Shown: one piece after another, positions 26,767 to 62,504 of the stretch
Numbering within the stretch: position 1 is the first letter of the stretch
Layout: the number at the start of each line of letters is the position of its first letter
Source: Tubulanus polymorphus
Taxonomy: Eukaryota; Animalia; Nemertea
Assembly (NCBI RefSeq): GCF_964204645.1
Contig: NC_134026.1
Span: 22,416,150 to 22,480,149, forward strand
Reading direction: 5' to 3'
Length of the DNA: 64,000 nucleotides
Made by a program: the position numbers and the translations under genes
The notes under the pieces: generated by a model
What the model was told of the DNA's origin: nothing
The model's input: the letters and a program-made list of their open reading frames with translations, nothing else
Database searches by the model: none

Positions 26767-26893
26767 TTAGAGCAAGTCATTCATAAGTGATTACTTTTAG
26801 TTGGTGGGGTGGGAACAATTGACAACTATTTCAATGGAAAGCGATGTGAACAACAAATAGAGATTTCTAAGCAAAAAGAAACCACTGTCAATT
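26767..26893 (+). promoter_or_regulatory. Conserved upstream element of NR2E1 copy A
   Basis: It aligns with the reverse complement of 62378-62504, with a 48-nt identical core at 26788-26835. It contains AAGTCA (26774-26779), AACAAT and TGACA/TGTCA motifs, and lies ~230-350 bp upstream of the ATG. Confidence 0.75.
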
Positions 26894-27119
26894 ATTCCGC
26901 ACAGGGCTTCCCTTCTATTATCAGCCATCGCCCAATCGCGCGCCTCCTTTCAAAATGGATATGAGAGCTGTCGACCAATTTTTGGAATGAAACTCGATTA
27001 AAGAACGTCTAGAAGTTCATTGAATCAGATTGGATCAAATTGGCGGTCTGGTGGTTTAGTTTCTGCAAGGAATTGCTATTATGAATTAATGAGACAAAAA
27101 TACTAATCACAGTTAAAGT

Positions 27120-30100
27120 ATGGAATCTCCCCTTAACAAACTACCGCAACCGTCTTCAAGTAAGTAGCATTCAACAAGACCTAGTTATTAACCAAGTTGT
27201 GGGTTAAATCTGACTTAGGTGTCACAATAATTTCATTTCGAATTATTTCTTCACTCCAGAATCTAGGTACTAATCAACATCTGTAAGAGCGGGCTCTAAA
27301 TGCATACGCAGCCACAATAGAAATCGGGAAACGGCTATGTCTCTATTGGGAGTCATGCGATATTTTTGTCGCGTGGTTTATTAGTGAATTAATTGATATA
27401 GTGTTCAGTATAAATGTGTAACCAATTGACACGGCTCACATAAGTTTTTAAACACAAATCGATGCGGCCTTTTGTTTCCTCTGTGGTCAATGTCAGGCGT
27501 AAGTGGTTACGTCTGTTTCCCGAGAGCTGTAAAGTCATTTGAGTTTTGCTACTTGTTTTGCTCTAAACCACAGGTGATTTTTTCGAGTGGTCTACTTCAA
27601 TCTTCGCTCTAATATGCGTTTAATGCATGTAAGTAGTAAAAACTAATTATGGCTAACGTTGCCAGCTCACTTGTGCCACTAGATTTTAAAATTATCGGGA
27701 ATCAAACGTCGGACAGCATTCGTCATACGGATCCGAACAAAATATGAATTTAGATACGACGTGTTTTCCAGGTAGGATTTTGTTAGATGTTCCGTGTAAA
27801 GTCTGCCAAGATCATTCTTCCGGAAAACACTACGGAATATATGCGTGCGATGGGTAAGTGATATAACTCTTAATGATAAGCATCTTAAAGGATAAAACAA
27901 AAAATCTATGTGAGTAAACATTTGTGTTAAACCATGGGCTATATAACCTTTATGACGACTATTCGTTTTATAGCTCATGGTTTAACTTAAATCATAAAGT
28001 TAAATCAGAATTTCTATGTGTTACAAAAAGATGTCTTATACATGCTATCCACATATGTATAAGGCAACGTCTCAAAGATCTACAAAAGAGGGTACTCGAA
28101 ATTTATTCGCGTGAAAGATAAGTGATCCGTCGTTTCTTGTTGAGAAGAAATTCAACAATCTTTGTGTCCGTATGAAACGCTTTGCTTAAAGTGTCCTGTG
28201 TTATTTTTAATCAAGTGGGCAATAACTAAGCACCGGGCAACCAAATCCTCTGAAACGTAGCATACTTCATACACGGGTCCCAATTTATAACGATGTTAAT
28301 AAACTACAATGTAATACGTATTATATAAGATGCAATCAATAGTAACCAGTTTTTTACTACGTATTTCAGATGTGCGGGATTCTTCAAGGTAAGAAAATGA
28401 AATGATTTCTTTCGAGTTCCCAATATTCCAAAACTATGACGTATCCACGAATCCATTAATGTTTTCTTAATAAGTCAACACTCGTTAAAACTTTCAGCGA
28501 TCTATTCGTCGTAATCGTCAGTATGTCTGCAAGTCACGCGGACAAGGAACTTGTTTAGTGGATAAAACTCATCGTAATCAATGCAGAGCGTGTCGTCTGA
28601 CGAAATGCGTGGAGGCTGGAATGAATAAAGAAGGTATAGATTTTAAGCAAATCTTATTATCACTATTCTATTCGATACATTATCATTATTTGCGTATATC
28701 TTAAAAAGGCTCACCTAAGCCACAATAATTCGGTGTTTAGTCGTCAATTAGTTGTAATTATTTTGTTGAAATATATTTTACGATAAATTTGTTCGAATTG
28801 TTTTGTAGCCGTGCAGCACGAGCGCGGCCCGCGACACTCCACGATTCGGCGTCAAGTAGCTATGTATCTCAAGGAGCAATCAGAACTCTCACACGCCGCT
28901 GTCATTCAAACTCCGGTTCCGATCAGACCCATGTACATTCCTCCTCCGACTGTTTCTATGGATCTTCACCTACGCGAGGCAGATTCTAGATTAGCGGGAA
29001 TGAGAATACCGCAATCTTCACCAAACAACATTCAAAATGCTTTTCTTCACCAACCAGTGCCAAAGGTTTGTATTTTTCACCGAGCGTTCTAATTGCAGTT
29101 TTCATAGATATTTATGGATTCGGTTATAAATTTTATTAACACCAGCTTGTAATAATTAGTTCGAATTCTCATTTCCAGTTCCCGACTTTATTTTCCCCGT
29201 CCACCACCCCGGGACCCGAGGTGATTTGTGAAACGGCAGCAAGACTCTTATTCATGAACGTAAAATGGACCAAAAGTATTCCGGCATTCGTCGGTTTACC
29301 GTTGCGAGATCAGACTTCACTGTTAGAAGAAGGTTGGAGGGAACTATTCGTTTTGAGTGCTGCGCAATTCCAGATGCCAATCGATGCTCCACCCTTACTT
29401 ACTGCAGCCGGTAATATATACATCACTCCGTATTCATAATATGTGACATTATGCTATTTTGATAAATTTCGGATTTTAGTTTTTCGATTAAATCCTTTGA
29501 ACTTGTAAAAAAACAGTTTTTCGGATGATTTATCCAATCAAATCATATACAGTTACATAGGGCCCAATTTCTTTTTTACTAAAGACGGGCTTAGGAATAT
29601 TTTCATATCAAGTGAATGAATTTTAAACCTTTTCCAGGCTATAGCACCAACGATTCGCAGCCAACGAAAGTAACTCAATTACTCGCAGAGTTACGGATTT
29701 TTCAAGAAGTAATCGACCAATTTAAAGCGATGAATACCGACCCCACGGAGTATGCCTGCTTAAAAGGAATAGCCTTATTCAAAACAGGTAAATGACATGT
29801 TTTTATTAAACTTGTACAATCTGACCTGACAAGTGGGATATTATCAATAATACGTGCCTGTGCGCTAAGATGTTTTCTGATTTCCGATTTCAAAATCAAA
29901 CGCCCTGTTTCGCTCCCGGCAGGTGTGGTGGGTCTGTAAGGGACACTCAATCAAAAAATCGAACGAAATTTACCAGCCAAATAAATAACAGGGAAAATCC
30001 CCAATTTTAAGATGAAAAAAGAAGATCTTCGACATATTTTGTGATGTCCTATCATCGATTTTCTTCTCTTTTTAGTTTTTCCATCCAGTTCCCCAGCGGA

Positions 30101-30350
30101 TACGACGAAAGATATCACCGACTTGCCCGCTGTAACGTGTCTTCAAGATCAAGCTCAGATCACCCTGAACAAATACATTCAAACGGCGTACCCGACTCAA
30201 CCATTTAGATTCGGTAAACTGCTGCTGCTACTTCCGTCTTTGCGTGCCATCTCAACATCTACGATCGAAGAATTATTTTTCCGTAAAACAATTGGGTCCA
30301 TACCGATTGAAAGACTCATAGTCGACATGTTCAAATCTGGTGATTTTTGA
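27120..30350 (+). CDS. NR2E1: Nuclear receptor tailless/TLX, copy A (8 exons, ~396 aa)
   Basis: Exons: 27120-27159, 27772-27853, 28370-28388, 28498-28633, 28809-29065, 29179-29410, 29638-29787, 30076-30350. The DBD reads [46 protein letters not shown]...[14 protein letters not shown]...AVQHERGPR, and the LBD includes [21 protein letters not shown] and [14 protein letters not shown]. The frame is open throughout. AATAAA at ~30470. Confidence 0.95.
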
Positions 30351-30664
30351 CGATTTGAAATGTTCCCGTTTTCATCAATGATTCGCGATGAAATATCAAT
30401 GTGCTAAAACAATCTGTATACTGTATAGATAAAACGAGTGATTCTAGAAATGTGGAATTATACGAAAATAATAAATTCCCTACGCATATATTATTTATTC
30501 AAAATTCGGATTCATGTCTTTTCGATCGAGTGTCTCTCTTTTCCAAGTTAGTACTCAGCCATCTCAAGTGGTAAAGTCCCCAGCAACAAATTATCGCCTT
30601 CACTTTTGATCCTAAAATCGGGAATTACCCGTCTTATTAAATTTGATTGATTGATTTAGATTTC

Positions 30665-30750
30665 ATTTGGTGTCCCTTACAAACCCATCGCACCAGTTGG
30701 GAATGAAGCAGGGGCTTGATTTTGAAATCGGAAATCGAAGTATAGATATG
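30665..30750. repeat. Dispersed repeat fragment, copy 2
   Basis: Matches 5059-5125. It is preceded by (TTGA)n, consistent with a retroposon 3' end on the minus strand. Confidence 0.55.
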
Positions 30751-33700
30751 GAAGATTCGGAATTAACTTTAGAGATTAATATAATGCTATCATATAAAAT
30801 CATATAATCATATAATCAAATCATATAATGCCCGTGTTTATATTTGTTGGTCGTTTTCCACGTGCAAATAGTGCAAAGGTTTCTTTACAGTTTTTCTCGA
30901 GTAGGTATTGATGTACTGTGTTGTCCGTCTCACGCGTTGACTAGAACTTGAAGAAAGAGGCACATTTTTGGGACGCAAATTATCCAGATGAGAGACTTGC
31001 TCTTATATCCGAAGTGTTAAGAAGTGGAAGTGTAACTGTTGACATCGACGGCGCAGCTCCGATGCGGATGGGTTTCTCCGTCAAGGGGATGCAATTTGTA
31101 CTTCACATCTGGTGCTTTTAAAACAGGATTGAATAGACGGTAATGGGTCTTTGGTGGTTAGGTCTCAAATTCAGGTACCAGTCACATTTGTTTCGGATAT
31201 ATCGTGTAAACAACGACAGAAGTTTAGAATTGTAGCTTTCCGCGGTGTGTGCCCTCGGCTCGATCACAAATCATTTTCACACAGTTTCGAGTTATCCAAC
31301 TATTGTGCGTAATTTGGTCAACAGTCACACAATACGTGATGTTTACACGAACTTCGTGACTACGAATTACGGAAAGATATTGTAGGGTGAAAAGCAAACA
31401 ATCCCGATATTTTCTTTAACTACACACAACTGCCCGATGACTTTCACTTGGTAGCGCGTAGAACGGTTTCTTGTCGGGACAGTGAATGAATTGAATTTCA
31501 TTTGTTGGCTTTGCGCTTCTCCGATTGTCAACAGAAGTGACAGTAGTCACGCATTTAATTGGCGAAGGGCGAGTTGTGAAAATATTTGTCCGTATCCGTA
31601 TATTTAATTGACCCGACACATTTCGACAACTGTCACTCAGTAATTTACTTCGTGTTCCCGTCGAACTTTGTACGCTTCCAATTCACGGTCGTATAATGAG
31701 CATTTTCAGGGGGATAATTTGGTTAAAGATTAGCGTACATTGATGACAATGGCCAGTGTCATACACCCAAGATATCATCTTAAATTCGTCTAAACTGTCG
31801 CTGTCGCGGGCAGAATACGAATAAAAGATGATCTGGTCGGCGAAGTGGGAAAACTTTGTCGTCTGCTTTTCCACGGCCAAACTTCTTTCTAGAAAACAGC
31901 TTGAGATCATTGGAGACCCTGTTTCTGATCCATTGTTTGGGGTGGATTATATAAAAAATGTTACTAAAACGCCTCTAATTACCAGGTACCAAATGAAAAT
32001 AACATTCATCAAACGAACTCATCTCCCTGTCGTATTGGTATGTTCTTAAATGGTCATTTTAGTGGCATCTTTTTGGTTTTAGTGATTAGTTCAATGGGGG
32101 TGAAGAACCCGTTGGGGTTTTCTTATGCTGTGCCTTTGTTGAGCCAGTTGTGAGGAGCTAAACATACCGGTAACGCAATGCGCCTTTATTTAGATATTTC
32201 AGAAAACAGGGTATCAAATTCTATTACTAGGAACGTTTGATGGGTAAAATTCACACATTTTCTGGAGTAATTAACGCAAAACTCGTTTAAAGGATCGGCT
32301 TAATCTTTATGTAAATTTGACTGTGTTTATAAATCCGAATCTCAAACCTAAACTAAAAGCGAAAAGTAAACCCATCCGACTTGGATTGATTTGAGGCCAA
32401 ACACAAGTCTTAGGATTTCGTCTTTCCCGAACAATCGAGGCACTTATCACTTGTGTGAAAGTGACAAACGGTTTTAACGATGACTGTGTTTACATTCTCC
32501 CGGGAAGGAGAATCAAAAGTTATTTCGTTTCTCGTTTGATTTATGTTCTTTAGGGGTTGTATTCATAAATGAAGCATTCGTCTAAACAGCTGTAGATTGT
32601 GGCTTCGTTTCATATTCAATTAGTTAATCTATCGACTGTAAGAGGAAATTTGTACTGAGGTCTTGCATACCACCAGATGGCGCGACCGAGGATTTCAGTC
32701 TGTTTTTTTTTAATCATTTGATCGGGTCGATAAAGGTTTGAAAATAATGCTGATAATTTTAACTTCGCCACCTGAATCGGTATCACGCAAACCGCGTCCC
32801 AACGATCACGGAAATGTACGGACAATTTTCGCCAGTTATCTCGAATTAAAATCTCGGCTTAGTGGTTGGTCGATAGAATCATCTCATACACTAAACAACG
32901 CCAACGTCTAATCGTCTCAAAAGTGTCTGTTTAGAAAATGAAATCAACGTCAATTGAAAGTGATTAGCGCACAATCAAACAGTTCCCCAAAACACGCCAT
33001 GTCGGCAGTTTGACGGAAAGTTGTACTTGAAAGGGAATAGTTTCTTGCACGCGAGGGCTGTCAGACGTGTAATTTTCTCTCAAAGTCTGCGTCAAATATA
33101 AAATCGTAATACAATCGACATATTGTCAAACGTCTTTCGTCGGCTAAATGTTCTGGCCATTTATCTCAAAAAGATTATATCATTCCATGAGCTAATAAAT
33201 ATTACAATCATATTCAATAGTAATACTCCGAATACGAACGAGAAAAATAAATCATGATAATGGTTTCGGCAGCTGTTAGCATAGGTAGTGTTTTGATTTT
33301 TGTTACATTTGCTCCTTTGGACACGACTGTGTACATAATGCGTATATACAGATGGTTAATCTTTTCTTTGAATGGTTTTCAAAACCAGCTGCTTTTTCAG
33401 CATCATGGGAGCTTAGAAAATCAACTATTTACATAGCAATATACACTGTGGCCAGTATGATACGAAATGAAGTGGCATATAATGATTTAGATAGCTCGTT
33501 AATGCGTCAAATTTGACAGGATTTAATGCTTTCGAATTTATTCACCTGTCGATTCATCAGACTGCTGCTGCCTGGCTTATTCACGCAGTTCCAACTAGTT
33601 TTTTTCGGTACACTTTTTGAAAAAAAATTCATTCTTCTTTATTTTATTCGACAAACTCGTGTTATTTACAAAAGACAATTTGAGTGTTACGATACAGAAA

Positions 33701-33795
33701 TAAACATGATATACGATATACAATACATATATTTCGAACACGAAAACAGCATCAAATTGGCGTTTGCACATATAATATTGTATTGCACATATAAT

Positions 33796-35781
33796 ATTGT
33801 ATTGTGTGTTCTCTTCAACAAATTTTTTGGTTGTGGCAAAGTCCCAAAGTTATGGAACCAAAGTATCATACACCCAATTCACAAAAAAGGTAAAGATGAA
33901 CTAGACCCCTTAGGATATCGTGGAATCAGTTTAAATTCTAATGTCGGTAAACTATTTAGCGCCATTCTCAATAATCGACTGGTTGAATTTTTAGATACCA
34001 ACGATTTATTGTGTGACGAACAAAATGGATTTCGAAAAGGTAGATCGTGTTTGGATCATATTCTTAGTTTAACTAGTATTGTAAAAAACCGTCAACTGTG
34101 TAATCAATCTACCTTTGCTTGTTATATTGACTTCAGTCAAGCATTCGATAGGGTCGATCGTCCATATCTTTTATATCGACTATATAACATGGGTGTAGAT
34201 GGAAACTTTCTAAATAGTATCAAAAGTATGTACACCAACAATGATGCGAGGTTGAGATTAAATGGTCATATGACGGACAGTTTTCCGAGTGTTTGTGGGG
34301 TCCGACAAGGAGACTGCCTTTCTCCAACACTTTTTTCTATATTTCTAAATTCATTGGCAAATGAGATTAAATCCATGAATCTTGGGATTGATGTCAGAGG
34401 TAGTAATGTGTCCATTTTACTTTACGCTGATGATATTGTTCTGATTGCATATGACGAACCTTCTTTGCAACTTATGATAGACAAAGTAACCGAGTGGTGT
34501 AGTAAATGGAAATTATAGTTAATATAAATAAATCTAAAATAATGCATTTCAGAAAAAAAAACAGTGAGGCTCACTGACTTCGTATTTACACTGGATAATA
34601 TACCCATGGAAGTTGTCAGAACATATCACTATCTAGGAATTGAACTTGATGAATTCCTTGATTATAATGTAGTAGCTGATTCCCTTGCCTCCAAACGCTG
34701 GGAAAGCACTCGGTAGCCTTTTAAGTAAACATTTCAGTAGTAGCGGATTACCTTTCACAACTTTTTCGAAACTATATAATGCAACAATAGTACCTATAAT
34801 GGACTATGGCAGTGCTGTTTGGGGTGTAAAAATATATCAAAGTTGTAGTAAAATCCATTATCGAGCTATGCGCTCTTTTCTCGGTACGGGGAAAAATTCA
34901 TCTTTGTTATCGATTGAAGGTGATATGGGATGGCTACCGGTTTCTATTAGGCATCGTATTGAGGTTTTACGTCTATGGTTTCGACTTTGTAATATGCCAG
35001 ATACGAGACTAACCAAACACTTGTTTCTTTATGATTATGAACTGGCCGTTATTGGCAAAGCTAATTGGTGTTCATTTGTCAAGACAATACTAACTGAATG
35101 CAATATGGAATATTTTTATGAGAACTTGCAGTTTTCTACACTAAATACCTATCAAATTAAAAAGGTTTTGAATGATATTAGAAAAATTTTATATAGGAAC
35201 TATGCTTTAACGTGGTCAAGAAATGTTCCTCTGCAACCAAAACTCCGTACTTATACCTCACTTAAGCCAAAATTTGGAACAGAAGATTATGTCAAATTAC
35301 ACACATCACGTTCAAACCGCTCCACAATAGCAAGATTAAGAAATGGTACTTTCCCCTTAAACATAGAACTAGGTCGCTACCGTAATCTGCCAATTGAACA
35401 AAGAATATGTGTTGCATGTACATCGAATGAAGTTGAAACAGAGGAACATTTCTTGTGCACTTGTCTCAAATACGTTGATTTACGTAATGACCTTTTTTCT
35501 AAGATTAATGCTATCTTGGGCCTAGACATATATCTTTTGTCAAATATCGATAAGGTTAGAATTCTATTAAGTAATAGTCGTATTGTAACTAGTGTTTGCA
35601 GATTCATATCAGCCGCAATGAAACTTCGCAATTCCTAATTCATTTTAAACCAATTATATCCAATCTGAATTAGTTGTACCAGTTTGTCACATGTTTGTTG
35701 TACTTGTAAATGTCAATGTGTCTTGTAAGCCTTATTATAGGCTGGCTTGTCTATCGAGATGACACGTAAATAAAGATATAT
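33796..35781 (+). mobile_element. 5'-truncated, frameshifted non-LTR retrotransposon (RT + C-terminal CCHC; RTEX-like)
   Basis: RT motifs include YRGISL, QNGFRKGRSC, IDFSQAFD, GVRQGDCLSPTLF, LLYADD and YHYLG. The C-terminus reads RLRNGTFPLNIELGRY...CVAC...EEHFLCTC (stop at 35638). Frameshifts lie near 34515 and 34690, with AATAAA at ~35769. A probable 9-bp TSD, ACATATAAT, lies at 33787-33795 and 35782-35790. There is no endonuclease or ORF1. Confidence 0.92.
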
Positions 35782-38700
35782 ACATATAATTCAGTCGCAA
35801 GATTCTATAACACATAAATGACATATGATATGAAAATCTATATGAGCTATTGTCTCATCGCGTCTTTTTCACGCAAGGTTTCGTATAATATACTCTCTAC
35901 ATATACACGTTCAAAATATGCAAATTAATGTACGAATTTATTTTCAGCGCATACAGAAAAATCTTGTCAATATCGAAGATTCATAAATTTACGTTGCACT
36001 ATACAGCATCGTTGCAATATACTGTATACGTTCATACAGAGGATATTTGTTTTTCCTTGAAAACTGAAAATCAGTCTAACCCAAAAATGTTTACCCGAAG
36101 CTCTTATGCAGCTATAATAGCCAACGTATTTTCGACGATTCATGCCAAACGAGAAGAGAATTGAATTGTTTCTCGCAGTGTCCAAACTAAAGAACCATCT
36201 GTCATGTTCAAAATGAAACAACCTGCCGATTATAAATGCACCACGTCATCGAATATACTTGAAGAGACTCGGCGCATAAGCTAAAAATCGAAAATAAAGT
36301 GTACTTCGAGCGACCGCTGGGACCTGCTGTGAAAAACAACTTCATTTAGCTAATCCGAATGAGGTTCAACATTATACCGACTCACCGAGATACAGTTTAC
36401 CATAAAACTTAGCAATCTAACGCTCGGTGGCTACGTGTTGCTTAGCGTAACTTTACGTTGGATTTAGATGTTTGGTCAGCTGTCAGATTAAGTTTTAAAG
36501 AGTCACTGAAGCTAATTCCGATATGACATAGCCCGAAATATAATTCATCTTAATAACAGCAATAGTTATTCACGTTGCTTGACTTATCCGTTAATAATAG
36601 AACATGGGAGGTCTTTTGCCCACGAACAACTCTTTCTGGGCATATACCTCCTAAATAAATAACGTTCAATGGATTTCAATTAACTTTAGCGTTTCAAGTC
36701 TTAATAGAGTTTTCGACGGCTATGGTCCGTCATTTATACGGACTACAATGCGCATCTTATCGGGTGAAGAAGAGGCATTCTTGTCATACAATGTGAATAC
36801 AAAATCAAAAGCCTTTTCGCAGTCGACGAACCAGAAGTAACGATGTATATTACACGTCAAATCATTACGGTAACAATCCGAAGCTGTCAGTTATTGCAAC
36901 GAGCTTTTTATAACGAAATGAATTCATAATAGCGACATGGCTGTGCACTAGCACAGTCGGAAGTTGAGTATTTGAGCGACAAACGCGTAAAATAAGGCTA
37001 CTAATTTAACTTCCATTCGCTATTGTGTGAAAGGTGTAATTTAGTTCTTGTTCTGAGCTTTTGAATGATTATCTTTATTAAGCGTGTCGAAGTTGATTAA
37101 ATCTTACATTTTGGAGTTGAATATAATTGGCACGGTAAAGAAACACACAGCCTTATCCATAGCCGAAACTAAAAGTTGATTAAACTTCGGGTAAAATACT
37201 GATCGGCTTTTTTTCAACTGCTAATGTGAATACTGATATAACATTACACAGAATCAACTGAATTATAAATTATGTTCTAAATGTAAATCATGCATCCTTA
37301 CACCAGGGTTGTTATATTGGTGGCAACGACCCACAGGGCATTTTAAAGGCAACCACATCAGATTAAGAGTTGAACATTTAAAAGGTAAATAAGTCCATTG
37401 AATTTAGTGAAATTCGGCGCTAAATAGGAAGCCCCTGGATTTAGGCATCTCTTAAGAACGTTGACTTTTCGCGCATTGAATCCAACTCGAAGTTTACCGA
37501 CCGATTACGCCTTGACAAATTAAATGAAGTTAGATTAATTTCACGGAGAGTTTGACGAACAAACACCGCAGATAATGCCCCATAAAGGGAACACTTTCAT
37601 TTGGAAGCCCTTGAGAAAATACGGTACATAAAGTTATGCAATTCCGACGCATCAGGTGTGGGTTAGGATCATTTTGTACAAAAGTCCATTTTGTAGGTAT
37701 TTTCTTTTATTTAGTCACCCCTGTTAGAGCTACGACACATGACGACACGGAATGCGATGGATTGAAAAATCTAAATGAACCCTAAAAGCCGTATCACAAA
37801 CACTTAGGGGCATTTAATACCTAGTTAAAAAATAAACAATATACAGAAGCTCCGTCGTCGTTGCATAAGCAGCTGTTTGATTCCGTTTTTGTTTAGGATT
37901 TAAGGAGGATAAATGTTTGTTGATCTGTTATTTACCGTAGCAATTTTCAAGGACATGGAGTATATGAGACTGCAATAATGAGTCAAAACTGGAGAATTTT
38001 GTGGAAAGTTTGATCAAGATATAACATGGTTTCTTCGAGATTTGAATTTGAGAAATAATTCTGATTTGTAAGGATGATGTATGGTGCAATAAGACGAAAA
38101 GTCGTGGCCGTGGTATAGAATAAGCTCCACACGGTACTCTTCTGATATGAAATAAGACTTGAAAATACGCCAAACGAAATCAGAATTCCCAAACACATTG
38201 CGAGGGGAGTATTGTGGTATTGTTGCATTATCTCGACACAATGTATATTCCTGTGGTATTATCTCGACACAATATATATTATAAACACACAAAAGATAGA
38301 ACAGTTTTGTTACAGAATTATTCAAGTTGACGTAGCAATATTTGGATGCGGCCGCCTCATTGAATGAAGAGATACAAGAAGTGAAAAAATACTTCTTAGT
38401 CCATTGTGCACACGAAATTGACTTGCAGATTTCTCCGGCGCCAAGGAGATTAGGTGGTATTGCCTCGAATGGTATCATCCCAGTAAAATAACAAACCATT
38501 TCAAGAAGAGGCTCGCAAAAACTTTTTAAGCGTCAATAGGTCAATTTGCTCGATTGAGAACGGCTTCTGTTTGGATGCTTGAATAAAATGATTTTCGAAT
38601 AACCAGCGCGCGGAATAGAATTCATAGCCCCTTTTCAAGAAAACTTCAAAACCTTTCAAAGATGTAGAATCGAGAATTAGATGAATTTGACTTTGGCCAG

Positions 38701-50700: not shown

Positions 50701-52574
50701 ATAATTATATGGATACTGTAGAATATTTACCAAAGAACACCAACTTACACATGGCTGGAAGCCTGTGTCAGATAAGGGGATAAATAATCTCTGATTGTCG
50801 GTGCACCTATCCATGGCATAGAAGACTCATGGTGGGAGCTGATGACAGGGAGACTGGGTTTAGATCCATCCGAATTTGTCAGTAATATTCGGCATGAGTG
50901 CAGCCCCCACTCGAGAGTGATGTATGGATGCATCTAAGTTATACATTAGGCGAATAAAGGTCTTTGAGAAAAGTATTTCCTTCTTAAAGTCAGCAGATGA
51001 ACATCTGACCGCATTTATCGCTTGAATTGCGACCAGGTGCAATCGTTGCCAGTGATTGCTGTATATATTATAAAATATCATAGATGATTATAATATTTCA
51101 TATGCTGTACAATTGGTTTCGATCATAAGAGGCACTTTCGCCGGCGGCGTTATCCTCGGTCACCTGTCAAATACCTATTTTACAATGACTTCTCATATGT
51201 TAGATTAGAAAAGTTAATATAGTCGAGCGAAGTTCACGAAAGATTAACGGTCAGATTTGTAAGCGCGGACAATTTTATCCAGGTTTTAGACAGAATACCC
51301 CTATGATTCAAAGTGTCAGAATTGCATAGATCTTTACCGGCGGACCGTGGTCGTAATTAAACGGTCATACCTTCGACAGTACTTGACTATTCAAAACGGG
51401 ATTTAGGGCTAATTATCACCGCCGATTTAACATAATAGAAATCATACTTCACCGTGATAATAGATATACGACGCACACACTGTAAAACGTTAGACACTAG
51501 AATAATCATATTGCAAATAATTCAGGCCTTCTATGAACCGAAGAAAAGTCATTTTCGGGTGAATATGCGCATACAAAAGGTCGTCAGACCAAACTGAAGA
51601 GTTTATTTTAAATTTCTCCGTTTAGTCACAGAAATGAAATATAAATTCGGTCCCCAAAAACCCTTGGTTCCCGATCCCCTATACGCGTTATCAATTCCTG
51701 TGAAGTAATGAGACTATTTTTATGGGTATGTTAAGAAGTACATAATATATGAAGTTAAAGCATTTTCAGCCGGCGGGGTTGATCAGGAAACTTGTCCTTT
51801 GTCAAATTCCGGGCTCGTATTCAGTTCCTGGGCGTGTTTGACTAGTTGACATAATCCGGCTTTCGGTCTGATGTGGCGCTTTAACGTTTATTTGACAACT
51901 CATTTTCCCAAGGATTAAATACAAGTAGGCTTTTTATCAGCCACAATAGGCCGTATGTATCGAACATATTCACGTTCGCATTGAAATTTGTCAACTTCAA
52001 TAGTTGATACTGATTCGTCTTCAATGCGGCCCTGAATCGACGGCCGCTGGGTTTTTTCCGCCATGATTTTTCATTGTGTCTAAATGCGTAAGGATTTGAA
52101 CGTATTTTTACCTAGGCTAATGCGACTGTTATTCTAGCGCGCGTTTGAATGCTTTAACGATCGCGGGCTTCGGGTAGATTTGTATAGGTCCGACCAAGGG
52201 AAAAAACGTCACAGACAAATCAGAAATTTAAAGAAGATTTTACAATTATTGTTAAGTAATCCTGACAGTTTTGTCATGGGAAATTGTTTTCCGCAGTTTC
52301 TCATACGTATATACGTAATGTTAAATGCTCATCCACGTTATTTAACTTCGGGGTAAAGAATAATTACGAATCAAACATCGACTTTCAGAAAATATAAGTA
52401 CGCAAATAGAAATAAAACCCGGACAATCAGTTCTATTCGTACTTCAACTTCGCATTGAATTCATTAGAATAAGACAGAGATTTACGAATGGTTACGAGAT
52501 TGTAGGCCTTTTAGCCTTTATACGCGTATAATCATATAGTAACAACATTTAGTTTTTCTAAATTCCGAATAAAC

Positions 52575-52845
52575 CAGGCCCGTGCCGAGCTTTTCGAGGG
52601 ACAGTTCTATTTCAAGAAAAATGGCATTTTTCACGATAAAAGGGGCACTTTCCTATTGAAAAAGGATTGAATAAGATGTTTTTGATAACCTTAATTAAAA
52701 AAATGTCTTGTTTTTATGACGTCATTTAACAATAGCATATTTACAAGTTGTAAATTGTATCCAAATTTTGCGCAGGGTTTTGGAAGGAATTTTGAAAATT
52801 TTAGGGGTTTCGTTCGCCACCCCCGACCTCCTCCGCACAGGCCTG
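52575..52845. mobile_element. hAT-like non-autonomous DNA element remnant
   Basis: 11-bp TIRs (caggcccgtgc versus rc caggcctgtgc) and an internal aaaggggcacttt motif. No 8-bp TSD is recognisable. Confidence 0.5.
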
Positions 52846-55336
52846 AAAACGCCGATTAGCATATTTCATGCAGGAATGCGAAATGTGTCTGTATTTGACT
52901 CTGAAATCTATGTGTCCCACTGGTGTGCGTCATGGCACACCTGTGGGTCCTATTTGAAGAATCGTGACCCAGCGGATAGAGCAGCAATTATTCTAAATGT
53001 GAAACGAATCAACTTCATTTTATACACGCGTGGTAACAGGTATTGAGTAACCGAATCTATAAAACTTTTTAAAAAACGCGCTATCTGATGATCAGAACAT
53101 AGAAACACGCACTCGTAAAGTCTAGTGCAATTTCTAGAACATGGTCTATCGGTCACGAAAATCGTGCCATCACAATGATATAATACTTCCCCATTATTTC
53201 GCCGTCTCCCGAAAAATGATTTCGCGAGAAACCTCTCACCGAGCTGGTGTTTTTCCGTTAAATATTCGAAAAGTCATTAAATGGACGCATAATTGCGGCG
53301 ACTCGGGCTAGAATTGCGTCAAAAGCAAATAGGAATCGTGTGACTATTTGCGCAGGTGGAGCAGCGAAAGTCGCAATACGAACACTGTTCCGTCTCAATA
53401 CGCAGATGGTCTCATTGCATTGCAGTTAGAATTTGGGAAGAATATTGAATTAGGCACTCTACGAGAAGCAGCACTACCTAAATCGTTTTTTGCCTCGAGA
53501 ATGTTCACGCTAAGATCGCGGTGATCTCAATAGCATTTAGGATGTTGTTGCAAATCGTGTGATGACAATACTTAATGTTATCGTTATAAATCTATCTTCG
53601 AGTTAGAATTGGAATCAACCTTAAGGCTCTTTCTGGAGCATTGTGAAAGAAAGCAATTAGTAATTTCTATTCGTTTTAGTTGTTTTTGAACAGTTGAAAT
53701 TTAATCTGTTTGTTTTTGTGCATTTGGTCGTATGAATAATCATCTGCTAGAATCAATGTTATTCTTGATTCTCTTGATTCAGTCATCAGTTCTTTGTAAG
53801 ACGGAATTCAAACAATAGCTGACGTGGAATTCATATTTTCATTTCTTCGACAAACCAACTTCTTTAATCATCATGACAAATACTGGAAACCAAAAGCAAA
53901 TTCCAATTACTTTCGTCAGCGAGTTGAAACATGTCGTGAAGTGTATGGACTTGTTTCATTTTCACAAAATCAGCGAAACGACGGAATAACTCAATTCAGA
54001 CTAGTATTCAATTTGTTTTTTTTTTCTAATGAAACAAACATTGATGGACGAATATAATTTACGTTATATTTTTATTTGTATTCCTGCCTCATTCAAATAA
54101 GTGATAATGGGAACTAAATACTAAGTTCTACATCTGCTATCTGTAGTGATCGGGAAGCCGAGATGATAACCGGAAATGTACTTAATCAAATAAACACTTT
54201 GAACAGGAGAAATCAAGCATACAAATAAGTAGTCGTCGATTTGAATGTCCTCAGATGTGAAAATGTACTCGAATAGAATGAATTGACCGGCTGGAAACTA
54301 TTAGATTTCTTCTACCAAACATGACTGAACGGTCGCCTTGAGCCACTATAACCCCCAGGTCGGCAAGTTTGACTGTTATTCAAGTCAAGTGGTTGTACGA
54401 ATCTTGTACGAGGTGCGAATAGATCTCATTCTTATTTTGTTGGAAGGCAACTCGACACCGATTTCCAAAATGCCTCTAATACTCGTTATCGACCGGGCAG
54501 ATAGGCTTTAACATCCTCCCAGAGTTTGGTGTAACTAAAGCGACAATAACAACTCAAGATGACTGTCTCCCAAGTTTGCAACGGCTACTGATAATGGCTG
54601 TGTCAAAAATGTAGTATGTCCCAGCGCTTTTTTGTACTTTTAGATAACTTATAAGTTTAATAAATTTCGTTGAAGGCTTATTTCAATAATGCTCATACGA
54701 GGTGAAGAGGCAATAGTCCTTTTATTGTTTGACAAGCGAAGCCTAATTTTTTTTCACGAAATGTCACGACTCCATAGAAATGAGAAATAGATAGCTATTA
54801 TTTATAGAGATTTGCGACTACGACACGAGGTACTTGATGGCTGATTTTATGTCTACATATAACGGGGACATTGCGTTTTAGCTTTTGTTAAAAGCGAAAT
54901 ATTTTACAAGTTGAAATCACTTAAACGTGTTTATGAATATCTGCCCATTGTCACATCCGTCGCCGAAACATATCGAAATTGAATTTAGAATAAATCCTTT
55001 AGTAGAATATGAGTCAAGTGTAAATGTACGAATGAAAATATGTATTTTGGGCTCCATATATTCTCCTTCTTGTTCAATGAAATGAATTCAGGACGTCGAA
55101 CGCAGGAAAGCGGTGTTACCTGCTGTAACCAAGGCAAGAATTTGTTTTCATGATATAACAGGATTTATTGACTCCGTTGCAGTCAGAACAATGATCATTT
55201 TACCATTAAAGCCTACATGTTAAATATAGATAATTCACAAATAGAACTTATATACATGTGTTTACACTTACAAAATATTATGTCCTTTTTTACATTTCAT
55301 TACCAATCAGTAAATGATATTACCAATCAGTAAATG

Positions 55337-55565
<229 letters not shown>

Positions 55566-56319
55566 TCGGAAGACAATCTTTTATATAACTATTTACACTT
55601 TTCAAACATTTAATTTAAATGTATGTTACGTATTTAAATGTATGTTACGTATCTGAAATACTTGAAGTCATCACAAGACGAACTATTTTGCATCTGTGAT
55701 CCTTATATGGCTAAATGAATGGAACTAAAACCAATTCAAATGGAAGAACATTGATTTTTGTTGTCTCTCAATAATATTTTGATATACGAAATATATGAAA
55801 TGATTGCACTTGATCCCTTTTTACAAGCGACAAACAACACATGCTGAGAAGTGTTGGTCTCTTAATTTCTTGAAATTTACAACGTTATACCCTGTGACCC
55901 AGGTTTGAGTCTGAGACACTTCAGCCGTTTAATGCTGAAGAGTCATTTGAACAATTTATACATACGTATACATATTTCAAGGTCATGAAAGTGTGATTGT
56001 GCTCAAGTAAAGCATTCTTTTGAAACATAAGTTTCTAATGATGTTAGAAATAAGTCATCTCAGTAATAGAAATGTATCCACATATATAGCACTTTGACTT
56101 TTTTCATCCCGGTGTACTTATGAAGATCCATGTGAAATTAATAGCGGATTTGTGAAACCCATTGGATCCGCAAAGAACAAAAATATAAAATAATGTCCTA
56201 ATCTAACTGAACTGTAATGACATCAATAAAGCAAATATCAATATCTCAATGCAATTTTTGGCAGCACTTTCTGGAAAGACAAGATTTTCCGTCAAAGTTT
56301 TTTTTACGAACACCAGAAA

Positions 56320-59300
56320 TTAGAACTCCGTTGATTTGAACATGTCGACTATAAGTCTTTCAATCGGTATGGACCCAATTGTTTTACGGAAAAATAATTC
56401 CTCGATCGTAGATGTCGAGATGGCACGCAAAGACGGAAGTAGCAACAGAAGTTTACCGAATCGGAATGGCTGAGTTGGGTACGCCGTTTGAATGTATTTG
56501 TTCAGGGTGATCTGAGCTTGATCTTGAAGACTCGCCACCGCTTGAATATCTCTTAAGTCTTTTAATTCCGTCGAACTGTTGTTTTGGAACACTAAATAAA
56601 ACAGAAAAAGAAAATGCATGTTAAAGATTGAATTCTTTCTATTCCGGTTCTTCATTTACTGAGAAAAGAAATTAGTAAAATACCTGTTTTGAGCAAAACG
56701 ATGCCTTTCAGACATGCGTATTCTGTCGGATCGACTTGCATTGCCTTGAATTTAGTTAGAACCTCTTGAAACAGCCTCATCTCGCTTATGATTTGTATTA
56801 CTTTATCGGATGAAGAATGTTCCTTCGTGATACCTGTTCATTGAAAATGTCAAATGTAATTCCAAAATATATTCAATAAAATATTGGTCAATATCTTCTA
56901 AAGGGATCTGTTAGCCTTACCTGCTGCATCTAAAAGTGGTGTTACTTCTATTGGCATCTGAAATTGTGCAGCACTTAAAACGAATAGTTCCCTCCATCCT
57001 TCTTCTAGAAGTAGAGTTTGATCTCGCAACGGTAAACCGACAAATGCCGGGATACTTTTGGTCCATTTGACGTTCATGAACAGCAATCTAGCCGCTGCCT
57101 CGCAAATCGCCTCGGGTCTCGTGTTGATGTAAGTGGACATAATTTCATGCGGATACTAGAAATAAGGCAAGATTCGAAATGATTATTCAACAATATTTTA
57201 AGACATAAACTTGATATTTTTTGTCAAATTTAAACATGAATAGAATTAATACAATTAATACCTATGTATATATTCTTACCTTTGGAGTAGGTTGGCATAT
57301 GGATGGGGGAGGGGGTGCTGCTGATATAACTGGAGATGGAACTGTGCCTATCAAAGGTGACGATGGCTCCGAGACAGGCGGTTGTAGTCTTTCCAGGCCC
57401 ATCAGTGTCGTCGATGGAAAGTACGGTGACCGGAACGGCGTGTTCGCTACAGACATCATTGACGACAGTTCGGTCTGTTCTTTGAGGTACATGGCTACTT
57501 GTCGACGTATGGTTGAGTTGCGGGGGCCTCTTTCGTGTTGTACGGCTGAAGGCAGAAAAGAGAATGCGACTGTGCGTGTTAGACGTAATACGATCACACG
57601 CGTTTGAAACTAATGTCATTATTATTACTTTACAGATTATTTTGTTTCGTGCAAAGTATCCAGCCTACAAGAAATACATTTCAGCGGGTAAATCACTGCC
57701 GCGGGATTTTTTCGCGGTATTTCGATATTGAGCATATGCGCTCTCAGCGGATGCGATGCTGGTTTATTCGAGCTAATTTGTTATTAAACGCAGTTTTGTC
57801 TTTTTTCACAGTTGATTTCTAGTCAGGATAGGCACGTTAACCCCCCTCTGGTCATGAATTATGCTCGTTCGTTCATAGTCACATGCTCGACGACTACTAA
57901 AGACACTCCGAGTGCCCAGAGCAACAATTATGTCCCCGGTGAACAGTGGCTGTCAAATACCCCATTTCTTGATACAAAAACCACCGAGACGCCATTGACT
58001 ATAACTGGCCCAGTATCGTCGTTGACTGGTAGCTGACTTTGTGAATTAGCTGAGCGTTTACAAATCGACTCTCAACACCTGCAGGGCTTTTACGTTAAAC
58101 GGCGACATTGACGAATCCATGGGGGACTATAGAGATAATACCGGAATAGCTTGTTAAAAATCTTTGAGTCACGATTTTTAGTGTTGAAGTAATGCGTTTT
58201 CAAATTCAGGTTTGATTATTGTCTGTTGCTGACAAAAACTCCAGCGCAGTGGGGGTAGTGTTGATTTTGTGATTAATTCGCCGAGGTACTGAATTTCGAC
58301 TCTTTTTATGTACCGTATCATTCAAGATGTGTGCCCACCCACCACCCAGAGTAATTACACTGTAAAGCCATCAAGTAACGTTTTAAATATTGCCGGCATT
58401 AAGAAATCAACAATGAAATGTCCTGCTTTTCAAAATGAATGTGAATTTTAGTGAATGGTTTCGCTAGGGGTGTCATTTCTTTTCACGAAAAATTGTAGGC
58501 CAACAATTTTGCCGCTATCCGAAGAGTAAGTAGCGTTCGGAATATCGCCGAGGCCCCGATCTATAAAACAGGTCAGGTGCAGATCTTATCGGTTGTGCTT
58601 TCTTTCTGTTGATGTGTGAAAAGTCGGACCAATAATTTAGATCAGCTTTCGTTTTGAAAAGCTGCAGTTAGATGTGGCAGGCGATAATCAAAATGAAATC
58701 TGGCAAAACCGTTTTGTCCCGATCAAAGGAACGATGGTTAGCGAGGGTCGATTCAAGCGATGTCCAATTCGAGCCAATTATGCCGCATATTATATTAAGA
58801 ATACGAGCCTAAGGGTAACTTAAGCGGTCTAATAACCGGCTCTTTGGGTGCTGACGTGCTGGATTAGAAGGGGTAGTGTCGATCTGGCGCGGCCCGACGG
58901 GTAATTGTACCCTATTCATGTTTTCGGTGTCTTTTTGTCACTAAGTCAGAAGCTCCATATGCATTTAGAACAACATCTGACACATCGCACAAACAAGACA
59001 CGCAGTTTTTTTGACGAGGTTCCTCGGCTCGGCAAGAGATCGAGTGTTGGGTTACTCCGTAATTTGCTAATTTACACTTTGCACGGCTATTATTCAAATG
59101 AGACGCGGATAGCTGTTATTTTTCAATAACGGCAAAACACAATCCGCGCCGAATCTCGACGACAGGCACGGGAACGAGGCAAAGCATAAATTAGCCATTT
59201 ACCAGTTGAAAAACGCGAGATTCGGCGCTTTTAGTAACTGGTGCAAGTACACATAATCAAAAGAAGAATACTCACCATCTTTATTCATTCCAGCCTCCAC

Positions 59301-62112
59301 ACATTTCGTCAGACGACACGCTCTGCATTGATTACGATGAGTTTTATCCACTAAACAAGTTCCTTGTCCGCGTGACTTGCAGACATACTGACGATTACGA
59401 CGAATAGATCGCTGAAAAACGAAACATAAGAGCATTTGTTTAACAGGGATTTTGGAAGAAATCTACTTTACAAAAAAAAAACTAATATACGAAATATATA
59501 AGGATTAAATAATCAAAATGTTTACCTTGAAGAAGCCAGCGCATCTGCAAAAAACAGAAATACAGCGGATTAGAGCGGGTAATATTGTCAGATGTGCGAC
59601 ACTTATTAAGAATTAAACCATCAATTACAATTAGTTTCCCTTTATTCAATGTTTATTCTACTTTAAAGACTCGATTGTGCGAGGTGGTGACAATTCAATA
59701 AACGCTTGAAAATTAATCCGATCACTTGCACCCCCGTATCAGTCGACTGGTCTCCGAGATGGTGATGTAACCAGCTCGCATCCAGTGATGCAATCATTAA
59801 TATCTTCATAAAGGATACTTTTGTCAACTAATATGAACTAAACACACTGGGCCAAGCAGATTAGACCGCGAGATGGTCAGTTTGGATGGCTTCTTCACCT
59901 ATTGTTTAGTTGGTGGGTATCGAATTTAACATGTGGGGGTGATTTTTAATCTAGTAACTTATTTATAGACTCAGGTTAGCAACGATTTTTTGCTATAGAG
60001 AGATTCAAGTAGCCTTTATATTGATATAAGATTTCTACATATGAATAGTATTATGTCGATTCAATTCAAGGAGATAAGGACAGAAATATCTAGAATTGAA
60101 AATTAACTACGTCATGCCAGGGACTCTAAACGAAGAATCCATGGTCATAGAAATATGATAATTATATTATATTATATATAATCTATTTACGAGTTATTAT
60201 GTTATGCTTACCCATCGCAAGCGTAGATTCCATAGTGTTTACCAGACGAATGATCCTGACAAACCTTGCATGGAATGTCAACCAATATTCGACCTGAAAT
60301 AAGACCGATAATATATAATCATGTATCCTGAATTGATATCTAAAATAGACGAATTCTCATTAAAATTCGTGTAAACAAACATATCGTAAACTTGTGAAAT
60401 AAACGATAGAATATACATCATGAATATGAATCATGAATATGATAATATGATACGATTTATTTTCTCCGCAAAGAAAATTATGATTAACAAAATATAGTCC
60501 ATAAGAGGTTTCGATAGTTGGATGTTTTTAATAACATAACATAGAAATAATGAAGAAAATGTGTATATCTAGTTTTATCTTGAATAGATATATTCCCGCA
60601 CAATTGAAAAAGATATTTTTTTGTGGTCGCTTTTTCAATGGAGAAAAAGATTTATTCGCCTCTGTAAATGCGACCGAAAGAAAAACCAATCGATCAATTG
60701 ATAAAAAACTGGCTTCTTGAAGTTAAATACTTTTCAGTCACGAATCTTAGAATGGAACATGTGCTCGACTGTGATAACGTATTATCTGTTCATGAAATTG
60801 ACATGATTTTTCTAAAGGTGCGCGAATAAAGAAATAGACGTCCAACATTGTTGCCATCCGAGAATGTAAATATTTCATTTCCCGTAAAAATGCCTTCTTT
60901 CAGCGACTACAACGGACGCTTCGGAATCTACGATCGAAGCTATAGGTCACGTAGTGCTAGAGCTGGTTTACAATTATCACATCCCTTTTTTGATAATAAT
61001 AATAAGATCGTTCGACTTCAAAAACATGTTTTTCTAAATCGCGCAGTTTTTGATGGGTTACTTGACTACTGAATGGCGAATCTATAAGTCAAACTCGATG
61101 GGAAAATAAACATCGCAATCTAAAACCGGCACAATGGCCGATAGGATTTTTCACACGTATATACATTTACTGATTTCAATTTTTGAGTGATATGTAGATT
61201 TCCATCAAGAATACATCATAACTTTTGTCTAAGAATGTTTCTCCAACCACATGATTATTTCGTCACAACGAGTCTCACTTTGACTCTCAAGTCCAAAATC
61301 GATTCGACATTTGAAATAATTGATGAAAAAATTCAAATCAATTGAAGAGTTGAACGCCTCTGCGAAAACCAGCACAGAATCTATTGTTTTGAATCAAGTT
61401 TTATGCCGTTATGTATTGAACATATTTGAGAAACATAAACGTCTACATTTATGTTTCTCGAATATGTTCATAATAAAAATATACATACTACACAGGCAAA
61501 CTACAGGCGAAATACTTGACTCTGTTTCGGCTGCATTAACTAGGAATATCTTGTTGACCTTTTACTGACGACAATAAAACCGAGCAATTTTGGACAAATT
61601 CCCTGATTTAGTTTTGGCTATACGTCATTACCGTTTAAAAGTCAACAATCCCTGATTATTCTTGTACGTTAGTTCGAGTTCTATTCAATGAGTTACATGA
61701 GTTTCGTTGCAAAAAGGACTCGGTGAACAGTTACCCAACATAACCTAGTCGAACGAAAGTCGTACGAAGATGTTTCAAAATTCCTTTCATAGTAAAATGA
61801 TTAGTTATCAAATAAAACGTTCTAATATCTGAAGTCCATCTTAGATCTTGTATATAATTCTGATATATTATCATAACAAGCTTTAATTCTATATTCAAAA
61901 TTTAGATGATAGAGACTTTTAAATGATAATCCACTGCAAAATGCTACATCGCAAGATAGAACCTTGTTTAAGTGTCAAATATTTTCTTAAAAAAACGGTT
62001 TCAGAATAGGAATTTTCTTTCCACACCGATTAGAAAATCGGTTTGTTGAAGAATTATAGTGGAAGTTTTTTCAAAGTTACTTACTTGAAGTTGGTGGTGA
62101 CAGTTTGTTCAT
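56320..62112 (-). CDS. NR2E1: Nuclear receptor tailless/TLX, copy B (8 exons, ~395 aa)
   Basis: Exons: 62112-62085, 60293-60212, 59544-59526, 59411-59276, 57545-57280, 57155-56921, 56833-56684, 56591-56320. Translation: [51 protein letters not shown]...[19 protein letters not shown]...[11 protein letters not shown]...DMFKSTEF. Intron positions and phases match copy A. Confidence 0.95.
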
Positions 62113-62377
62113 ATCGATTCTCTTTGAAACGTCCAACATCAAAATGCAGTGAGATTTTTCAATTTGGTATACGTATTCCGAAGATGAATTAAAAAACGTT
62201 CTAATTCCACGAATTCTTAACGAGACCGCGACTGTCCCAGTCGAAGCCTGGTGCTATTGAAACGAAGTGTGAACTGAACAGGTCTTCATATAACCATACC
62301 CCGCGTGGCTTCATTTGGGTTTTGAAAGCCAACAGCTGATTGGTTATAGTTTCATAATGGAGGGAAAGGCCTCATAT

Positions 62378-62504
62378 TAATTGACAGTGGCTTCTTTTGC
62401 TATTGTCATTGTGTTTGTTGTTCACATAGCTTTCTATTGAAATAGTTGTCAATTGTTCCCACCCCACCAACTAAAAGTAATCATATTTGAATGACTTGCT
62501 CTAA
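62378..62504 (-). promoter_or_regulatory. Conserved upstream element of NR2E1 copy B
   Basis: Reverse-complement match to 26767-26893, with the identical core at 62436-62483 and AAGTCA on the minus strand at 62492-62497. A CCAAT box lies just downstream on the minus strand (~62339-62343). Confidence 0.75.

Follow-up and report, generated by a model that had tools for sequence, protein, structure and literature searches.

Gene conversion copies DNA from one gene copy to another. Between paralogues, according to a review covering Caenorhabditis (PMC3966223), it is usually reported for exons, introns falling below the homology threshold, and it occurs in both direct and inverted orientation; the Caenorhabditis tracts described there often include very small introns. 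In the copepod Tigriopus californicus, GOT1p1 and GOT1p2 were presented (PMC3728101) as mosaic paralogues with islands of divergence under interlocus gene conversion, stretches of low and high divergence alternating in a pattern that was read as ongoing conversion together with regions escaping from it. The two tailless genes described here show the same alternation as the copepod pair and the diverged introns by which the review explains the limitation to exons. They differ from GOT1p1/GOT1p2 in a background that is fully saturated at silent sites, in the shortness of the shared pieces (116-200 nt), in the convergent arrangement of the genes 26 kb apart and in that conversion is inferred here from one genome. 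Unlike the Caenorhabditis tracts, the one at exon 4 ends at the splice signals, and no likeness is left between the introns, which measure 87-1791 nt. The pair would make a clean new instance of a well-known, ordinary process.

The window, the whole stretch of 64,000 nucleotides that was analysed from the ribbon worm Tubulanus polymorphus, holds two genes of the NR2E1/tailless type in convergent (tail-to-tail) orientation, copy A occupying 27120-30350 (+ strand) and copy B 62112-56320 (- strand). The brain-patterning gene tailless is represented by eight exons in each copy, and all seven intron positions and phases are the same in A and B. Exon coordinates (Table 1) were derived independently of an earlier note on this DNA, and all counts are taken from them. 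Exons 2 to 8 of copy B are letter-identical to a protein named by its source as T. polymorphus NR2E1-like (P0005), and its exon 1 gives the first residues of the same protein. In length, domains and sequence copy B is usual for NR2E1 and resembles other spiralian members, such as the matches labelled Lineus longissimus and Lingula anatina, whereas copy A is a second copy that evolves faster and for which no entry was found among the proteins of the searched collection. The double zinc-finger domain zf-C4 of Pfam was recognised in exon 4 of copy A (E 7.6e-12) and in P0005, that is, in copy B (E 1.7e-27), the first zinc finger being recognisable by direct reading of exon 2 in A as well as B, and the ligand-binding domain (Hormone_recep) was matched by exon 6 (E 5.6e-9) and exon 8 (E 1.1e-8) of copy A and by P0005 (E 5.4e-28). 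Among at least 120 protein matches, nearly all specific product names were NR2E1 or tailless; one listed match was named photoreceptor-specific nuclear receptor-like, and many were unnamed or bore just a generic name. The best match listed after copy B itself was at most 79% identical, the protein collection holding no close relative.

Table 1. Features of the two tailless genes (positions within the window)
Feature	Positions	Strand	Remarks
A upstream non-coding block	26761..26921	+	84% identity to B block; 48-nt exact run 26788-26835
A exon 1, coding part	27120..27159	+	predicted start ATG at 27120; RNA-like X4 contig over 26991-27141
A exon 2, first zinc finger	27772..27853	+	unconverted control; X4 contig runs on into exons 3 and 4
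A exon 3, 19 nt	28370..28388	+	differs from B at 3 silent sites
A exon 4, second zinc finger	28498..28633	+	most recent putative conversion tract; exact identity 28492-28607
A exon 5, hinge	28809..29065	+	strongly diverged (pS 0.85, dN 0.50)
A exon 6, ligand-binding domain start	29179..29410	+	core 29236-29382, 87% identical to B
A exon 7	29638..29787	+	diverged, 64/150 nt differ
A exon 8 and stop codon	30076..30350	+	block 30141-30335 matches B
B upstream non-coding block	62354..62513	-	matches A upstream block
B exon 1, coding part	62085..62112	-	begins MNKL
B exon 2	60212..60293	-	equals P0005
B exon 3	59526..59544	-	equals P0005
B exon 4	59276..59411	-	near-identical to A exon 4; shared unitig with B-specific flanks
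B exon 5	57280..57545	-	junction to exon 6 (57280 to 57155) in X4 contig
B exon 6	56921..57155	-	exon 5-6 junction in X4 contig
B exon 7	56684..56833	-	64/150 nt differ from A
B exon 8 and stop codon	56320..56591	-	block 56335-56529 matches A

Both genes are intact, transcribed and spliced; at position 27132, according to the upstream BLAST alignment and a direct reading, copy A has CTT where copy B has ATG. In a protein tree of 61 rows the two copies are sisters (SH-aLRT 97) and fall within the spiralian NR2E1 group, the other NR2E subfamilies not being included as outgroup. With end branches of 0.47 for copy A and 0.14 for the conserved copy B, or 1.01 and 0.32 once the three blocks of high identity described below are removed, the rate of change in A is more than threefold that in B. 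After that removal (33 rows, 219 columns) the tree keeping A and B together remained the favoured one (lnL +7.62, p-AU 0.853), and no protein-level incongruence between the blocks and the remainder was seen in either the 61-row or the 33-row trees. As the grouping of A with B is not rejected without the blocks, the residues shared in them need no conversion to be explained.

The most striking piece is exon 4, which differs between copies at 2 of 136 nt, a silent change in a Cys codon (position 111) and a Glu/Asp replacement (position 135), so that the first 110 nt are identical. In the last exon, the block LQDQAQ..DMFK has 9 differences in 195 nt, all of them silent. The earlier note, made from the letters by eye, had reported both figures, and they hold, as do the 3 silent differences in the 19 nt of exon 3 and the strong silent divergence of exons 5 and 7. 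It had put the core of exon 6 at roughly 90% identity; high identity is there (29236-29382 versus 57095-56949), but the measured value is 87%, with 19 of 147 nt differing. Exon 2 differs at 20 of 82 nt and in 18 of 27 codons (18 of 26 had been counted before), with just two amino-acid changes. The proportions of silent differences (pS, Nei-Gojobori) are 1.03, 0.90, 0.033, 0.85, 0.51, 0.98 and 0.365 for exons 2 to 8, in that order, and dN is 0.04 in exon 2, 0.01 in exon 4 and 0.50 in exon 5. Silent sites are thus saturated in exons 2, 3, 5 and 7: 65% of background codons for the same amino acid differ, versus 60% expected for random synonymous codons. The protein of exon 2 is as conserved as that of exon 4 and yet saturated at silent sites, which indicates that protein constraint alone does not keep silent sites unchanged.

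That the introns do not align, as had also been stated, was confirmed by BLAST, which gave six similar A/B pieces between the gene halves, none of them intronic; in the whole window there are 11 repeat pairs, five belonging to the two genes and again none intronic. The identity of exon 4 stops at most 6 nt upstream and at most 2 nt downstream of the exon, and in the 60 nt on either side 35 and 40 places differ. It does not cross the exon 3-4 or 4-5 junctions: exon 3 has its three differences in 19 nt, and exon 5 is already diverged where it begins.

These near-identical tracts within old, diverged paralogues are beyond chance. The test took the 272 codons at which A and B encode one and the same degenerate amino acid; in these the longest unchanged run spans 39 codons, a length reached in none of 100000 shuffles. 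Against a background of 75 differing codons among 116, only 1 of 43 such codons differs in exon 4 (Fisher p = 6e-14), 10 of 65 in the exon 8 block (p = 8e-11) and 17 of 47 in the exon 6 core (p = 0.0015).

Short near-identical stretches of paralogues are the usual site of polishing errors, and the earlier note had granted that an assembly, polishing or collapse artefact would undo its reading. In this regard, unitigs from a DNA-like run (X1) carry a 116-nt stretch once, placed on both 28492-28607 and 59302-59417, with a depth of 45.6 and two flanks on each side, joining unitigs specific for A (depths 26.3 and 27.8) and for B (19 and 20). As the shared depth is the sum of two copies (26.3 plus 19-20), no third copy carries the stretch. 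In the same run, a 136-nt piece of exon 8 with eight A/B differences is split into two unitigs (depth 30.1 for A, 19.7 for B), and no alternative letters were seen in exon 4 in any of four runs. Copy B exon 4 is confirmed in X1 only, possibly the sample of the assembly itself and hence not an independent individual; from a second sample, though, the RNA-like X4 contig joins exons 2, 3 and 4 of copy A, with no difference from A and one from B. With the identity present in raw reads between two distinct sets of flanks, that objection is removed, and an artefact is hardly credible.

A further possibility is that, since the duplication, purifying selection peculiar to this lineage has acted on the nucleotides themselves, without any copying, for instance on a target of small RNAs, an embedded splicing enhancer or a regulatory element within the gene. 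The blocks do coincide with the most conserved parts of the protein, and a non-coding block some 300-370 nt before both start codons is kept as well (84%, 48-nt exact run), in line with a sequence-level constraint at the locus. This upstream block, which in copy A has stop codons in all three frames, could equally be read as a conserved regulatory element, in which case nucleotide-level selection does act at the locus. Moreover, GC3 is not raised in the blocks (0.31/0.29 in exon 4 and 0.44/0.45 in the exon 8 block, compared with 0.37-0.48 in exons 2 and 5-8), which means that the mark of GC-biased conversion, a supportive rather than a defining criterion, is not seen. On the other hand, 22 metagenome loci encoding relatives were fetched, and 19 of these, distant orthologues in other animals, were compared with this gene: where the amino acid agrees, 48-79% of the codons in the exon 4 region are different. 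The earlier note had itself pointed to invariant silent sites in other species as the sign of constraint; at this distance they vary freely. Neither exon 4 nor the exon 8 block gave a fold signal (z -0.47 and -0.45; control exons -0.83 and +0.37), and no Rfam match was found in the window. Selection of this kind would require some 36 third positions within 110 nt to be all essential, it leaves exon 2 saturated at equal protein conservation, and the three grades of silent divergence suit differences in age better than grades of constraint. We regard it as unlikely.

The earlier note had called the identity exon-restricted. The wording fits exon 4 only, since the blocks of exons 6 and 8 begin and end within their exons and the non-coding upstream block is shared too. 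The borders of exon 4 have a bearing on conversion templated by a cDNA of the other copy's mRNA, which would likewise end its tracts at splice sites; both genes are transcribed, and a reverse-transcriptase gene (RVT_1 of Pfam) sits between the copies. The abrupt end of the identity next to the splice sites is, however, already accounted for by the diverged introns, and the tract fails to span the neighbouring exon junctions. As the seven introns are kept in both copies, in the same places and phases, nothing indicates a cDNA, and the blocks of exons 6 and 8 stop where the protein diverges, as homology-limited pairing of DNA predicts. A cDNA template is accordingly quite improbable.

Apart from that wording, the proposal of an old duplication with patchy conversion is favoured by the saturated background, the identity in raw reads and the freely varying silent sites of distant orthologues. 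The shared blocks most likely come from repeated, homology-limited interlocus gene conversion at the DNA level between old paralogues, a reading to which we give a probability of about 0.7. Heteroduplex between the inverted copies would form only where their sequences remain alike, and tracts would for that reason end at diverged introns, as in exon 4, or where the protein diverges, as in exons 6 and 8. The inverted arrangement may, as the earlier note suggested, have helped by an intrachromatid fold-back. Conversion would thereby be confined to stretches in which amino-acid constraint preserves enough homology, and exons 2 (82 nt) and 3 (19 nt), although conserved, may lie below the length of homology that conversion needs. 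That it acted repeatedly is suggested by the graded silent divergence of 0.03, about 0.15-0.2, about 0.4-0.5 and saturation, which on the letters of the two copies may reflect the time since the last conversion, latest in exon 4, earlier in the exon 8 block and then in the exon 6 core, the other exons having escaped long ago. Selection against conversion where the fast copy A has changed may help to maintain the mosaic.

It is rather doubtful, although conceivable, that selection has kept conversion as a modular device, by which A would be held identical to B in its second zinc finger and at the C-terminal side of its ligand-binding domain. The device would then be long-standing, given the saturated silent sites elsewhere, and would leave room for change in the hinge and at the front of the ligand-binding domain; both regulators would have the same DNA contacts and the same partner-binding end while the remainder differs, and functional selection, not homology alone, would decide where a tract ends.

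Conversion of this kind can mislead the dating of duplicates: judged by exon 4 alone, this duplication would pass as very recent, whereas exons 2, 3, 5 and 7 place it as old. In copy A the ribbon worm has a further tailless gene, one that is intact and whose transcripts are spliced, and in studies of head and brain patterning in nemerteans probes taken from the diverged hinge exons would separate the two copies, whereas exon 4 and the last exon would yield probes that match both.

Two convergent NR2E1/tailless nuclear-receptor genes lie in the window, with their 3' ends ~26 kb apart. Reading frames and AG/GT signals, together with an alignment of copies A and B, define eight coding exons in each, with equal intron positions and phases and unequal intron lengths, as illustrated by intron 4 (175 nt in A, 1730 nt in B). 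Zinc-finger and ligand-binding domains are found in both proteins (Pfam), and 280 of the 375 aligned residues are identical. Copy B is present in the protein collection under its source's name, 'nuclear receptor subfamily 2 group E member 1-like [Tubulanus polymorphus]' (record P0005), residues 11-395 of which equal the translated exons 2-8 letter for letter, exon 1 being the first ten residues; the window accordingly belongs to that ribbon worm or to a genome almost identical with it. Copy A, queried with two of its exons, was absent from the collection's matches. No close relative of either copy was seen there, identity staying at ≤79% after copy B itself, and a search for A-type orthologues with the hinge exon of A (exon 5) gave 4 matches among 10 candidates, none of them A-like and each lying mainly on that exon's conserved first part.

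Both copies are transcribed and spliced. Four public sequencing runs, from one study and two samples, contain this stretch, and X4, from the second sample, is read as RNA-like because of its spliced contigs. A 228-nt X4 contig matches exon 4 with 0 differences to A and 1 to B, and its other 101 letters equal exons 2 and 3 of A joined (82 + 19 nt), not those of B; a 153-nt contig crosses the exon 5-exon 6 junction of copy B, in agreement with the exon model. Given frames intact over its full length and this spliced contig, copy A seems to be a tailless paralogue without a protein record in that collection. At its 5' end, copy A reads CTT where the start codon of B aligns; an in-frame ATG 12 nt upstream gives a predicted N-terminus four residues longer, and an RNA-like X4 contig covers 26991-27141 there.

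Coordinates in the window, A/B differences and X1 read depth of the features discussed
Feature	Copy A or element	Copy B or partner	Differences, identity or depth	Same-amino-acid codons differing (Fisher vs background)
Coding sequence	27120-30350 (+)	62112-56320 (-)
Aligned start region	27120-27159	62112-62085
X4 contig at start region	26991-27141
Upstream block	26761-26921 (+)	62513-62354 (-)	84% identity
Exact run in upstream block	26788-26835	62483-62436	48 nt
Exon 2 (first zinc finger)			20/82 nt; 18/27 codons; two amino-acid changes
Exon 3			3/19 nt
Exon 4 (second zinc finger)			2/136 nt (exon positions 111 and 135)	1/43 (6e-14)
Exact identity at exon 4	28492-28607
Exon 6 core	29236-29382	57095-56949	19/147 nt; 87% identical	17/47 (0.0015)
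Exon 8 block LQDQAQ..DMFK	30141-30335	56529-56335	9/195 nt, all silent	10/65 (8e-11)
Background (all other parts)				75/116
Exon 5-exon 6 junction, X4 contig		57280 and 57155
X1 unitig, A-specific	26806-28521		depth 26.3
X1 unitig, A-specific	28578-29908		depth 27.8
X1 unitig, B-specific		56477-59331	depth 20
X1 unitig, B-specific		59388-62465	depth 19
Intron 7 element and inverted partner	29879-30024	30598-30736	74% identical
Palindrome, copy A intron 2 (weaker)	27920-27992
Palindrome, copy B intron 1 (54 nt, imperfect)		61417-61470	89%
Retrotransposon copy	33517-35638 (+)
AT-dinucleotide-like microsatellite	55307-55656
Tandem direct repeat, ~112 nt	527-648	639-760	97.5% identical

The identity between the two copies is a mosaic, and the pattern is real and statistically strong. 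The counts of differences put forward in the earlier note for exons 2, 3 and 4 and for the exon 8 block were reproduced, with exon 2 now counted over 27 codons, and the exon 6 core, described there as roughly 90% identical, is indeed highly similar, at the somewhat lower value in the table. Silent divergence (pS, Nei-Gojobori) across exons 2 to 8 was 1.03, 0.90, 0.033, 0.85, 0.51, 0.98 and 0.365, so that exon 4 stands at 0.033 against 0.85-1.03 in exons 2, 3, 5 and 7, in line with the patchiness described. The silent test set was limited to codons whose degenerate amino acid is shared by A and B (272 of the 375 aligned). Outside the three blocks (exon 4, exon 6 core and exon 8 block) the differing share, 0.65, is close to the 0.60 expected from random synonymous choice, which indicates that silent sites there are saturated and bears out the claim of an old duplication. 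The longest unchanged run covers 39 codons, a length reached in 0 of 100000 shuffles.

The description of the mosaic as exon-restricted holds only in part. As claimed, introns do not align when one gene half is compared with the other by BLAST, which returned six pieces, all exonic save one upstream block, and self-comparison of the window gave no further A-B similarity. The similarity of exon 4 ends at its splice sites, the exact identity comprising 110 nt of exon and, before it, 6 nt of intron that form no more than a plain acceptor signal, but the blocks of exons 6 and 8 start and stop within the exon, exactly where protein identity between the copies ends. Moreover, the non-coding upstream block is common to both copies, ~300-370 nt 5' of both start codons, with stops in all frames, whereas the flanks of the two genes otherwise cannot be aligned; candidate roles are a co-converted stretch, a piece of 5' UTR and a conserved promoter or enhancer.

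That the identity arose from polishing or collapse of the assembly was rejected from the reads of X1. This run is genomic-DNA-like and possibly comes from the sample behind the assembly, so it bears on such artefacts and not on a second individual; X2 and X3 cover introns and exons and may be either RNA or DNA, and coverage gaps in X2-X4, the upstream block included, are uninformative. A common 116-nt X1 unitig (depth 45.6) sits on exon 4 of both copies and overlaps all four A- and B-specific flanks, its depth being the sum of those of copies A and B. As judged from this unitig depth, exactly two genomic sites carry the piece, each between flanks of its own. For the exon 8 block, the reads give two distinct 136-nt unitigs (depths 30.1 and 19.7) split by 8 A/B differences. 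Two alleles assembled side by side were likewise rejected, since the introns are unrelated and differ in length, and separate spliced X4 contigs for each form also contradict this reading.

The best reading of these data is that homology-limited interlocus gene conversion at the DNA level, one of the forms of patchy conversion considered in the earlier note, probably produced the near-identical blocks: the mosaic exceeds chance, the artefact is excluded and silent sites vary among distant orthologues. Pairing between A and B would be possible only where the copies are still alike, and tracts would end at unalignable introns in exon 4 and at the onset of protein divergence in exons 6 and 8. Silent divergence is lowered in the longest strongly protein-conserved stretches (136, 147 and 195 nt), whereas exons 2 and 3, equally conserved but only 82 and 19 nt long, are saturated, as expected if conversion needs some minimum length of homology. 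Its three grades would then reflect how long ago each block was last converted. A cDNA template, for which the sole favourable point is that the borders of exon 4 identity fall at splice sites, is not needed, given that every intron is retained and that identity stops at the exon 3-4 and exon 4-5 junctions.

Less probably, constraint on the nucleotides themselves, specific to this lineage, keeps the blocks alike. Against it, exon 2 offers an internal control, its protein being as conserved as that of exon 4 while its silent sites are saturated. Relatives of other animal origin were also encoded in 22 metagenome loci, 20 of which include the exon 4 region; one was excluded because an intron splits the region, and in the remaining 19, six of them near-copies of each other, 48-79% of same-amino-acid codons differ from this gene, which amounts to saturation. 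Hence silent invariance among orthologues, here distant ones only, was not observed. RNA folding was no better than in shuffled sequences for exon 4 (z -0.47) and the exon 8 block (z -0.45; control exons, -0.83 and +0.37), and Rfam gave 0 matches within the window. Conversion, for its part, gains nothing from GC3, which is not elevated in the blocks and shows no mark of GC bias.

Protein trees speak to the age of the duplication. A tree of 61 rows joins the two copies as sisters (SH-aLRT 97). After removal of the three blocks (33 rows, 219 columns), a quick tree placed A beside an annelid-labelled row (support 82), apart from B, but an AU test favoured the tree keeping both together, which the quick search had missed, by 7.62 log-likelihood units (p-AU 0.853). 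There is consequently no protein-level conflict between trees with or without the blocks, and no help from them to conversion; nor do the blocks-removed trees support a duplication predating the split from the other nemertean among the rows. Since A and B stay together without the blocks, the duplication looks specific to this worm's lineage, after that split. Copy A evolves far faster than B (end branches 0.47 vs 0.14; 1.01 vs 0.32 with the blocks removed). A recent duplication followed by fast divergence elsewhere was rejected, as silent sites and introns cannot be selectively accelerated.

Other elements accompany the two genes. The short element in intron 7 of copy A is a very abundant interspersed repeat, as indicated by its X1 unitig depth (~54,000-60,000, vs ~26 around) and many loose ends; its inverted partner lies just 3' of the A stop codon, so that the last exon is flanked by inverted copies. 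Between both genes, two long open frames, the first of which matches the Pfam reverse-transcriptase family RVT_1 (E 8e-33), mark a retrotransposon copy. The long microsatellite gives I-Y runs in all frames, and the aligned stretches of the tandem repeat (527-760) overlap.

According to a review, conversion happens in direct and inverted orientation alike, and in Caenorhabditis paralogues it is mostly reported for exons because introns fall under the homology threshold (PMC3966223); copepod GOT1 is described as a case of mosaic paralogues shaped by conversion (PMC3728101). Among the papers listed for tailless in nemerteans, none deals with such a gene pair, judging by titles and abstract openings, and none of the matches listed for the Tubulanus polymorphus genome concerns nuclear receptors by its title. 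Conversion-shaped mosaic paralogues are already well described, and the tailless pair adds a probable further case; the main practical point is that this worm expresses a second, fast-evolving tailless gene, which searches of the protein collection with two of its exons did not recover.
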